Source of the DNA: Candidatus Krumholzibacteriota bacterium | GTDB taxonomy: Bacteria; Krumholzibacteriota; Krumholzibacteriia; Krumholzibacteriales; Krumholzibacteriaceae | DNA length: 64,000 nt | Assembly: GCA_030609325.1 (NCBI GenBank) | Contig: JAUWCL010000001.1 | Location: 2,208 to 66,207 of the forward strand | Direction: 5' to 3' | In this document: one piece after another, positions 17,210-22,948 of the stretch | Layout of the letters: the number at the start of each line of letters is the position of its first letter | Numbering within the stretch: the stretch's first letter is position 1 | Program-made: the position numbers and the translations under genes | The notes under the pieces: model-generated | The model's input: the letters and a program-made list of their open reading frames with translations, nothing else | What the model was told of the DNA's origin: nothing | Databases searched by the model: none

Positions 17210-17709
17210 CGCTTTTCCATCCCCTTCTTCAGATCGGCGATCTCGTCCCTGAGCCGGGCGGCCCTCTCGTAGTTCTCCAGCTCCACGGAGATTCTCAGCT
17301 CGTCCTCGAGGGCGCGTATCCTGCGTCTCGCGTGGACCTTCTCGGTGCAGTACCTGCGCGGAGACTTTCCGAGGTGCCTGGCGTTCCCGTGTATCCTCTT
17401 CAGGACCTTCGCGATTTCCTCCCCGAACGAATCGTAGCATTTCGAGCATCCCAGGCCGGCGGACTTGCTGAATGCCGCGTACGTCCTCCCGCAGTGCTCG
17501 CACCTCCTTCTCGCCCCCCCCTTCTCCGGCAGGGCACTGCTGACCAGCCCGGCGAGGAGGTCGGTCTTCTCGAAATTGCTCCTCTTCAGGTAATCGAAGC
17601 CCTTTGCCTCGGCGCAGGACCGGCATATGTGGATCTTCACGACCTTGTTTCCATCGACGTTGGTGAAATGTATAGTCGCGTTATTCTTCTTGCAGAACTG
17701 GCAGATCAT
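17206..17709 (-). CDS. mcsA: McsA, activator of protein-arginine kinase (zinc-finger / UVR domain protein)
   Basis: Paired CxxC zinc ribbons (CQFCKK...CRSC; CEHCGR...CSKC) followed by a UVR-like helix (RIRALEDELRISVELENYERAARLRDEIADLK). Confidence 0.75.
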   Translation of the reverse strand: MICQFCKKNNATIHFTNVDGNKVVKIHICRSCAEAKGFDYLKRSNFEKTDLLAGLVSSALPEKGGARRRCEHCGRTYAAFSKSAGLGCSKCYDSFGEEIAKVLKRIHGNARHLGKSPRRYCTEKVHARRRIRALEDELRISVELENYERAARLRDEIADLKKGMEKR

Positions 17710-19721: not shown

Positions 19722-21236
19722 TCAGCCGTCCCTTCCCGTTTCGGGCCGCATCGCGGGGAAGAGGATGACGTCCCTGATGGAATGCGAATCGGTGAGGAGC
19801 ATCACGAGACGATCGATCCCGATGCCCAGCCCCCCCGTCGGAGGCATCCCGTGCTCGAGAGCCCTGAGGTAGTTCTCGTCGACAGGGTGCGTCTCGTCGG
19901 CGCCCTCCTGCCTCATCCTCGTCTGCTGTTCGAAGCGCTCGCGCTGGTCGAGCGGGTCGTTGAGTTCGCTGAACGCGTTGCCCATCTCGAACCCGGCTAT
20001 GTACGGCTCGAACCTCTCGACGAGGCCCTTCTCGCTCCTGTGCATCTTGGCGAGCGGCGACAGCTCGACCGGGTAGTCGGTTATGAAGACCGGCTGTATC
20101 AGATGTGGCTCGACCAGCTCTGAGAAGATCTCGTCGATCAGGCCCACCCATCCCGAGACTCCCTCGAGATTGATGCCGCATCTTTCCGCTGTCTTTCGGA
20201 GCTCCTCTTCGGAGGCCTCGCGAAGGTCCTTGCCCGTCTTCTCCTTTATCGATTCGAAGAAGGGCAGCCTCCTCCACGGAGTGGCCAGATCGATCTCCTG
20301 CTCTCCGTACTTTATCTTCGTCGTCCCCAGCACCTCGTCGGCGAGCTTCTGGTACAGGGTCTCGACGAACTCCATCATGTCGTTGTAGTCCCAGTAGGCG
20401 GCATAGCATTCGAGCATCGTGAACTCCGGGTTGTGCGACCTGTCCATACCCTCGTTCCTGAAATCCTTGCAGAACTCGTATACACGCTCCATCCCGCCGA
20501 CGATCAGCCTCTTGAGATAGAGCTCGTCGGCAATCCTGAGATAGAGCTTCATGTCGAGGGCGTTGTGATGGGTGACGAACGGCCTCGCCATCGCGCCGCC
20601 GTATATCGGCTGCAGGACAGGTGTCTCGACCTCGAGAAAATCCCGCTCGTTGAGAAATGACCTGATCGTGTCGATTATCCTCGCCCTCGTCCTGAAGACC
20701 TCCATTACCTCGTCGTTCACTATCAGGTCGACGTAACGCTGCCTGTACCTGAGCTCCTTGTCCTGCAGACCGTGATACTTCTCGGGGAGCGGAAGAAGCG
20801 ACTTGGACAGGAGCTCGAGCCCCTTCACCTTTATCGTCAGCTCGCCGGTCTTCGTTCGGAAGAGAGAACCTGAGAGTCCGACGACGTCGCCGACATCGAG
20901 GAGCCTGAAGGTCTTCCACGTCTTCTCATCGACCCCGGCGTCCTTGATGTAAAACTGCAGGCTGCCCGTGCCGTCCTTGAGGTTCCCGAACGACGTGTGG
21001 CCGTGCCCCCTTATCGCCATTATCCGCCCCGCTACCGACACCGACGCGCCATCGGTGGAAAGAGATCCCTCGTTCTCCATCGTCTCGATCAGCGAATGCG
21101 TGCGCTCGAACCTGTAGGGATAGGGGTTTACTCCCAGCCTGCGCAGCTCCTCCAGCTTGCGGATGCGCTCGTCCCTCTCCCGTCCCCCTTCCTTTTTTTC
21201 CTTGTCGCTCACCTTCAGCTCTTCCTTTCCTTCCAT
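19722..21236 (-). CDS. lysS: Lysine--tRNA ligase
   Basis: 504 aa class II aaRS with an N-terminal OB anticodon-binding domain and motifs 1-3 (FRNEG..., [10 protein letters not shown]). Confidence 0.9.
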
Positions 21237-22316
21237 TTCAGATAACCTTCCATGAACTGCTCAATATTGCCGTCCATCACGGACTGTATATTCCCCGTCT
21301 GGACCCCGGTCCTGTGGTCCTTCACCATCGTGTAGGGATGGAATACATAACTCCTGATCTGGTTGCCCCAGGAGATGTCCTTCTTTTCGCCGGCGACCGC
21401 GGCCTGCTTCTCGGTCTCCTCCTCCATCAGCTTCGTATAGATACGCGATCGCAGGACCTTCATCGCCATCTCCCTGTTCCTGTGCTGCGAGCGCTCGTTC
21501 TGGCACTGCACCACTATCCCTGTGGGGAAATGGGTGATCCTCACCGCCGAGGAGGTCTTGTTGACGTGCTGTCCGCCCGCCCCACTCGCCCTGTACGTAT
21601 CGAGCCGGATGTCGTCGGGATTGATATCGACCTCGATCTTGTCGTCGATCTCGGGGTAGATGTGCACGGCCGCGAAGGATGTGTGGCGCCTGTGATTGGC
21701 ATCGAACGGCGAGATCCTCACGAGCCGGTGGATCCCGCTCTCCGACTTGAGCCTGCCGAACGCCAGCTCTCCGCGCACCTCGATCGTCGCGTTCTTTATC
21801 CCGGCCTCGTCACCTGGCTGCAGGTCGAGCATCCTGAACGCGTATCCCTTCGTCTCGAGGAACCTCGTATACATGCGCAGCAGCATCTCCGCCCAGTCCT
21901 GGGACTCGGTCCCGCCCGCTCCCGGATGGATGTTCATTATCGCGTTGCCTCGATCGTTCTCCCCGGAGAGCAGGACGGCCATCTCGAATTCGGCCAGCCT
22001 TCTGCCGATCCGCTCCAGTTCGTCCCCGATATCGGCCAGGATCGATTCATCCTCCTCACCGAGAGCGATCAGCTCCTTGAGGGAGTCGATATCAGATTTC
22101 ATCTTTTTGTAGGGATCGAGCCTGCTCTTGAACTCCTTGAGCCTTGATACGAGTTTCTCGGCGCTTTCCCGGTCGTTCCAGAAATCGGGCGCGGCCATCT
22201 TCTTCTCGATCTCCGCCACCCCGGCCGTCATCGTCTCCAGGTCAAAGATACTCCTTGAGGCTGAGCAGCTGCTGTTCTGTCCTTGCGGCGGCTTCCGCCG
22301 CTTCCTTCGACGACAA
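21215..22316 (-). CDS. prfB: Peptide chain release factor 2, expressed via a programmed +1 frameshift. Frame 0 runs from TTG 22316 to CUU 22247-22245, followed by UGA 22244-22242; the +1 frame then continues from GAC 22243 to 21215.
   Basis: The downstream ORF carries the GGQ motif ([11 protein letters not shown]) and SPF-type RF2 features. Upstream frame 0 encodes [24 protein letters not shown], ending at CUU UGA C, preceded by an SD-like AAGGAG 3 nt upstream. See the finding for detail. Confidence 0.85.
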
Positions 22317-22327
22317 CCTCTCCTGCA

Positions 22328-22948
22328 TCACCATTTCCTCCGCGACCGGCCGTATTCCTCGAGAAACTCATCTCTTATGCGCGCCGCCTCTTTCCTGACC
22401 TCGGCGATAGGGATGTCGGTGTCCAGCCTGACACCGGCCTTCTCCCAGTCCTCGAACAGGTCCCTCTGGCGCTCGATGCGCAGTTCGGCCTCCTTCCTGT
22501 CGAAACCGTTCCTGCGCATCATCCTGCGGATGCGGACCTCTTCCGGCGCGTCCGTCAGCACCACGAGGTCCGCCTTGAGTCTGAATTTATACTGTAAAAA
22601 CAGCACGGCATCAAGGACTATGTATTTCGAGGTCTCCGCGAGCTCCATGAGTCTTTCCCTCGCCAGCTTCTTTACATACGGACGGATCAGCCTGTTCAGC
22701 CTGTCGAGTTTTTTCTGGTCGGAGAAGACCATTCCGGCGAGCCTCAGGCGCGTCACCCTCCCGTCGCCGTCCATGACCTCCGGGCCAAACTCTTCTCCGA
22801 GCTTCTCTGTGAAGCCGGGATCCTCAAGCGCCGCGTGGGCGAGCGCATCGCCATCGACGTAGACGCCCCCCCCTTCGGCCATCACCCTCGCGACTGTAGA
22901 CTTACCCGAGGCGATCGGCCCCGTCACCACTATGAGAGGTACTTTCAT
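22328..22948 (-). CDS. coaE: Dephospho-CoA kinase
   Basis: 206 aa with P-loop GPIASGKST. Its start overlaps the polA stop (ATGA). Confidence 0.85.
   Translation of the reverse strand: MKVPLIVVTGPIASGKSTVARVMAEGGGVYVDGDALAHAALEDPGFTEKLGEEFGPEVMDGDGRVTRLRLAGMVFSDQKKLDRLNRLIRPYVKKLARERLMELAETSKYIVLDAVLFLQYKFRLKADLVVLTDAPEEVRIRRMMRRNGFDRKEAELRIERQRDLFEDWEKAGVRLDTDIPIAEVRKEAARIRDEFLEEYGRSRRKW

Follow-up and report, generated by a model that had tools for sequence, protein, structure and literature searches.

Within the window (the whole 64-kb stretch of DNA analyzed), the minus strand carries a tight string of genes between positions 17706 and 25659, in the order polA, coaE, prfB, lysS, a gene for an FtsX/MacB-type permease and a gene for an ABC ATPase (LolCDE-like). 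Neighboring genes in the string overlap or have very little space between stop and start, with 4 nt shared by polA and coaE. The gene directly upstream of prfB is coaE (dephospho-CoA kinase; 22328..22948, minus strand), which was assigned by TIGR00152 with 109.6 bits (cutoff 65.55) and by PF01121. Directly downstream lies lysS (lysine--tRNA ligase; 19722..21236, minus strand), assigned by NF001756 with 704.8 bits (cutoff 468). Two start candidates are available for lysS: ATG at 21236, resulting in a 22-nt overlap with the end of prfB, and GTG at 21212, located 2 nt past the prfB stop. Either start is possible, because the lysS profile is matched from residue 20-21 onward in the long form. The same gene order, polA-coaE-prfB-lysS-permease-ABC ATPase, was found at the most closely related locus, referred to as L001.

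In the list of open reading frames (ORFs), release factor 2 (RF2) was represented by its body only, a 338-aa ORF from ATG 22231 (21215-22231). The minus strand was read from 21000 to 22500 and all three frames were translated, resulting in two prfB segments. The frame-0 segment comprises codons 1-28 (22245..22328, minus strand) and was identified as the N-terminal part of RF2 by profile and structure alignments. The +1-frame segment (21215..22243, minus strand) runs over 342 codons from GAC (Asp29) to the stop codon TGA at 21217-21215 and contains the PCRF and RF-1 domains. Frame 0 closes with LLSLKEYL and a stop, and the +1 frame opens with DLETMTAGV. A first-pass annotation, made from the sequence, had described the ORF from ATG 22231 as lacking its N-terminus, and this was borne out: the body measures 338 aa and the N-terminus lies in frame 0.

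The two frames meet at the composite cassette AAGGAG UAU CUU UGA C (22256-22241), read on the minus strand. Its 5′ part is an internal Shine-Dalgarno-like hexamer, AAGGAG (22251..22256, minus strand), separated from CUU by the 3 nt of UAU. The shift site proper, UAU CUU UGA C (22241..22250, minus strand), is identical to that of E. coli over 10 nt. It consists, all on the minus strand, of the E-site codon UAU (22250-22248), the shift codon CUU (22247-22245), which forms a slippery CUU-U with the U at 22244, the RF2-specific stop UGA (22244-22242) and, 3′ of this stop, a C at 22241 that provides a weak termination context. The UGA is codon 29 counted from ATG 22328 and codon 25 counted from TTG 22316. 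At RF2 shift sites, the stop is UGA, rarely UAA and never UAG, and is found near codon 26. The coordinates given in the first-pass annotation for the cassette and the TTG were checked against the minus-strand sequence and were all exact.

Chance occurrence was assessed over the 64-kb window. Taken by itself, the heptamer CTTTGAC shows no excess (3 occurrences, 4.6 expected). The composite RGGRG-N3-CTTTGAC occurred once in 64 kb, against 0.01 expected, and in a shuffle control a match was obtained in just 1 of 100 shuffles. This sole match coincides exactly with the frame change in the RF2 homology. An extra stimulatory RNA structure was not supported by folding of 22180-22345 (z = -1.39; 14 of 200 shuffles were at least as stable). 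When the whole window was compared with Rfam at gathering thresholds, 0 matches were obtained, with none at the shift site and no 16S rRNA. Similarly, a tRNA scan of the 64-kb window yielded no tRNA gene, and hence no CUU-decoding tRNA-Leu.

The spliced protein was aligned to the RF2 family, a check that had been proposed earlier, and the outcome was positive. It scored 520.5 bits against NCBIfam TIGR00020 (prfB; cutoff 370), the match extending over residues 17-364 and over positions 4-353 of the 353-position profile. RF1 models gave 283.7 and 279.4 bits, under their cutoffs of 400 and 423. Pfam domains PCRF (PF03462) and RF-1 (PF00472) were both detected, and the RF2-type motif SPF at residues 206-208 and GGQ at 251-253 (370-aa numbering) are aligned with their counterparts in solved RF2 chains. 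Solved RF2 chains align without gaps across the junction: LKEYL/DLET pairs with LRGYL/DYDA of E. coli, placing the junction at Leu25/Asp26, and the junction also pairs with GSL/DLES of B. subtilis. The frame-0 segment itself aligns with the N-terminal ends of RF2 from B. subtilis, E. coli and Thermus. Homology is thus ungapped across the Leu-Asp junction, and the frame-0 ORF therefore encodes the real RF2 N-terminus. The spliced product had been given as 362 aa; counted from TTG 22316 it comprises 366 aa (24 + 342), since DLET, the four codons from the shift site to ATG 22231, had been omitted.

An in-frame start giving an unshifted RF2 had been named in advance as evidence that would speak against a frameshift. 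From the coaE stop (22330-22328) down to ATG 22231, the body frame contains no ATG, GTG or TTG, and therefore no unshifted full-length RF2 is possible. The RF2 body lies in the same frame as coaE, and this frame stays open for 32 codons, with no stop, from the coaE UGA into the RF2 body (22231-22330, minus strand). Readthrough of the coaE stop would fuse CoaE to an RF2 with an altered N-terminus; this arrangement is probably a coincidence.

Conservation was examined by scanning species-representative genomes, resulting in 80 related loci. The closest relative, L001, is an uncultured-bacterium metagenome-assembled genome (MAG) with 73% RF2 identity, and all other loci show 57% or less, which indicates a poorly sampled lineage. 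The other loci are spread over Marinisomatota, Ignavibacteria, Gemmatimonadota, Acidobacteriota, Bacillota and further groups. CTTTGA was present at the homologous place in 74 of the 80 loci and TTTTGA at one more, giving 75 sites. A purine-rich tract lies at -8 to -4 in all 75, and TGAC was found at 60 of them (a tally that includes the one TTTTGA site). The L001 site reads CAG GGT TAC CTT TGA C, and in a DNA alignment UAUCUUUGAC (10 nt) is identical in the window, L001 and E. coli K-12. Absence of the N-terminal peptide from close relatives had also been put forward as counterevidence. L001 encodes a homologous frame-0 peptide: its frame-0 ORF comprises 28 codons, of which 11 of 28 are identical in an ungapped alignment (MQERLSSKE... 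in the window, MESRMTSKE... in L001).

Neither CTTTGA nor TTTTGA was found at the homologous place in 5 of the 80 loci (L014, L021, L049, L062 and L066). These belong to Lentisphaerae, Victivallaceae, a Peptococcaceae MAG, Cloacimonadales and Eubacteriales. RF2 appears to be encoded in a single, uninterrupted frame at these loci, which would fit a scattered loss of the frameshift. The site was also recovered in two Logan metagenome contigs from separate sequencing runs, SRR14876856 (58.9 kb) and SRR14876848, which are identical to the window over the shared stretches, the site included. Public gene calls on both contigs contain the 338-aa RF2 only.

Frame 0 offers several start codons. Upstream of TTG 22316, three more in-frame starts are present: ATG 22334, GTG 22331 and ATG 22328. 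The most likely prfB start is the ATG at 22326..22328 (minus strand), the A of which is common to the coaE stop (TGATG). Such a TGATG stop/start overlap is the usual arrangement for translational coupling. A putative initiation Shine-Dalgarno for frame 0, GGAGGA (22336..22341, minus strand), precedes ATG 22328 by 7 nt and is itself part of the coaE 3′ end. The homologous ATG of L001 is preceded by the same GGAGGA hexamer at 4 nt, and across the four codons between ATG 22328 and the TTG, Met1 and Arg4 are conserved in the window and L001. Because of the overlap with the coaE stop, the GGAGGA at 7 nt and the homologous ATG/GGAGGA in L001, ATG 22328 was preferred, and translation of prfB more likely starts there, yielding a predicted product of 370 aa. 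On the minus strand, this start gives join(22328..22245, 22243..21215) as the preferred gene model for the 370-aa protein. Scoring of start codons by duplex energy was confounded by pairing to 16S bases 5′ of CCUCC; the start argument therefore rests on the spacings as read and on the comparison with L001.

The same frameshift with initiation at the alternative in-frame TTG (22314..22316, minus strand), resulting in a 366-aa product with the TTG decoded as Met, is possible, though rather unlikely. In its favor, AGGAGAGG stands immediately upstream and frame 0 would have 24 codons, near the 25 of E. coli. The homologous codon 5 of L001 is moreover an ATG, one that has no Shine-Dalgarno in front. 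The GGAG core, however, is only 0-3 nt away from the TTG, whereas ATG 22328 combines GGAGGA at 7 nt with TGATG; L001, too, has an ATG with GGAGGA at the homologous upstream position, and conservation of Met1 and Arg4 extends upstream of the TTG. The first-pass annotation had taken the shift site to confirm the TTG start. This is unsupported, and ATG 22328, with its coaE overlap, its spaced GGAGGA and its ATG counterpart in L001, is the better candidate.

It is highly improbable that RF2 is made by initiation at ATG 22231 without any frameshift, as a 338-aa protein, with the upstream 28-codon ORF serving as an independent leader peptide. In favor of this reading, ATG 22231 is preceded by GGAG at 3 nt, the equivalent codon of L001 is likewise ATG, and automatic gene callers selected this start. 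A Shine-Dalgarno spacing of 3 nt is nevertheless too short for efficient initiation, and this applies to the GGAG here. Furthermore, the frame-0 peptide shares homology with the N-terminus of RF2, and the alignment is continuous across the junction; the Met is unconserved in other relatives (DVDAKQ, DLDERR, DIEARA etc.); and the 338-aa product would be without the first ~32 residues of full-length RF2.

Finally, the frame break could be a genuine frameshift mutation or an error of assembly or sequencing, which would make prfB a pseudogene or misassembled. This reading retains next to no probability, and sequencing error or pseudogene is effectively excluded. Indel errors do occur in metagenome assemblies, and the break lies at a T run (CTTT). 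It falls, however, exactly on the conserved cassette (Shine-Dalgarno at 3 nt, UGA, C), the same site is present in 74/80 relatives, the window sequence recurs unchanged in two contigs from separate sequencing runs, and the RF2 body is undamaged and scores far above the family cutoff.

A canonical programmed +1 ribosomal frameshift that autoregulates RF2 is thus, on sequence grounds, by far the most probable reading of this locus. All features open to in silico testing agree with the first-pass identification, in which the site was named as the autoregulatory +1 frameshift cassette of RF2. Following initiation at ATG 22328 (less likely TTG 22316), 28 (or 24) frame-0 codons would be translated, bringing tRNA-Leu on CUU into the P site and UGA-C into the A site. 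When RF2 is abundant, the UGA would be recognized and the short peptide released. When RF2 is scarce, the ribosome would pause at the poor UGA-C context. AAGGAG would then pair with the anti-Shine-Dalgarno tail of 16S rRNA, the short spacing would destabilize the E/P-site tRNAs, and the peptidyl-tRNA-Leu would re-pair from CUU to UUU, so that decoding resumes in the +1 frame with GAC (Asp). The outcome of the shift would be full-length RF2 of 370 aa. An RF2-level-dependent mechanism with Shine-Dalgarno-driven tRNA destabilization and a CUU to UUU slip has been described (PMC12421855). In vivo frameshifting at the present site, its efficiency and its dependence on the RF2 level are extrapolated by analogy with E. 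coli, B. subtilis and F. johnsoniae.

The internal Shine-Dalgarno of the window is the canonical AAGGAG, where the consensus at prfB shift sites is AGGGGG. Its pairing was modeled as a simple ungapped duplex with the conserved 16S tail. As the 16S rRNA 3′ end is absent from the window, anti-Shine-Dalgarno pairing was assumed from the general conservation of this sequence. The predicted duplex of AAGGAG with the consensus anti-Shine-Dalgarno amounts to -8.0 kcal/mol, versus -10.7 at the E. coli site. The model has 16S C1535 facing mRNA position -4 in E. coli and 41/74 relatives, and -3 in the window, a register found in only 4/74 relatives. The window duplex is therefore 1 nt nearer CUU than that of E. 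coli, and the number of unpaired bases from duplex to CUU is still three. In this model, the 1-nt register shift could make the frameshift efficiency differ from that in E. coli. Clear Shine-Dalgarno sequences were seen at several window genes, and overall 15/47 genes had one upstream against a 19% background, a modest enrichment in a crude count with the starts of the longest ORFs taken as gene starts.

If prfB initiation were coupled to coaE termination at the UGA of the TGATG overlap, it would itself depend on a stop read by RF2. It is very unlikely that the shifted register of the perfect AAGGAG and the coaE-prfB coupling make up a second, upstream layer of RF2-dependent control; the AAGGAG register and the TGATG overlap are also expected from chance and ordinary operon packing. 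In such a reading, the register shift might alter the frameshift efficiency or the RF2 set-point of this lineage, and the coupling could add to that effect.

The frameshift element is already known and has textbook status, and its identification here is correct but ordinary. Its practical value lies in annotation, where the truncated 338-aa public RF2 gene model is to be replaced by a two-segment coding sequence (CDS). In addition, the locus provides an extra data point, from a poorly sampled and fairly GC-rich uncultured lineage, for an ancestral and widely retained prfB frameshift. The prfB site here raises no new question.

The prfB motif was found in 64% of 12,753 genomes, and its elements are hyper-conserved and probably ancestral to bacteria (Prince, Lin and Feaga 2025, mBio, PMC12421855). 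The first-pass figure of about 70% of bacteria agrees with early surveys (Baranov et al. 2002 and Bekaert et al. 2006, as cited in PMC12421855) but lies above the 64% of this current large survey. Loss of the motif correlates with high GC content and high TGA usage, and motif-less genomes average 62% GC (PMC12421855). The window has a GC content of 59.1% and uses TGA for ~53% of stops (crude set of 49 ORFs). The motif is thus kept toward the GC-rich end, where loss is commoner, which is unremarkable.

Compared with E. coli K-12 prfB, annotated as a two-piece joined CDS, the present gene shares the identical UAU CUU UGA C, an SD-like hexamer ending 3 nt before CUU, a junction at the homologous Leu-Asp, and the RF2-specific UGA followed by C. 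The prfB-lysS arrangement, earlier likened to that of E. coli, indeed shows the same adjacency in K-12, where lysS lies directly downstream, 9 nt from prfB. The two systems differ in the hexamer, which is AGGGGG in E. coli and AAGGAG here (perfect Watson-Crick to 3′-UUCCUC-5′), in the length of frame 0 (25 codons there, 28 or 24 here), and in the upstream gene, which is recJ there and coaE, with its overlapping stop/start, here. The best RF2 matches include other lineages of the FCB group (Ignavibacteria, Marinisomatota, Gemmatimonadota). The same cassette is found in Bacteroidia, as represented by F. johnsoniae, where the anti-Shine-Dalgarno is sequestered, the Shine-Dalgarno adds little to prfB frameshifting and the efficiency in F. 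johnsoniae is about 7% (PMC10798248). The site likewise follows the bacterial motif logo (PMC12421855) in its purine-rich Shine-Dalgarno, 3-nt gap, CTTT, TGA and C, and nothing essential differs.
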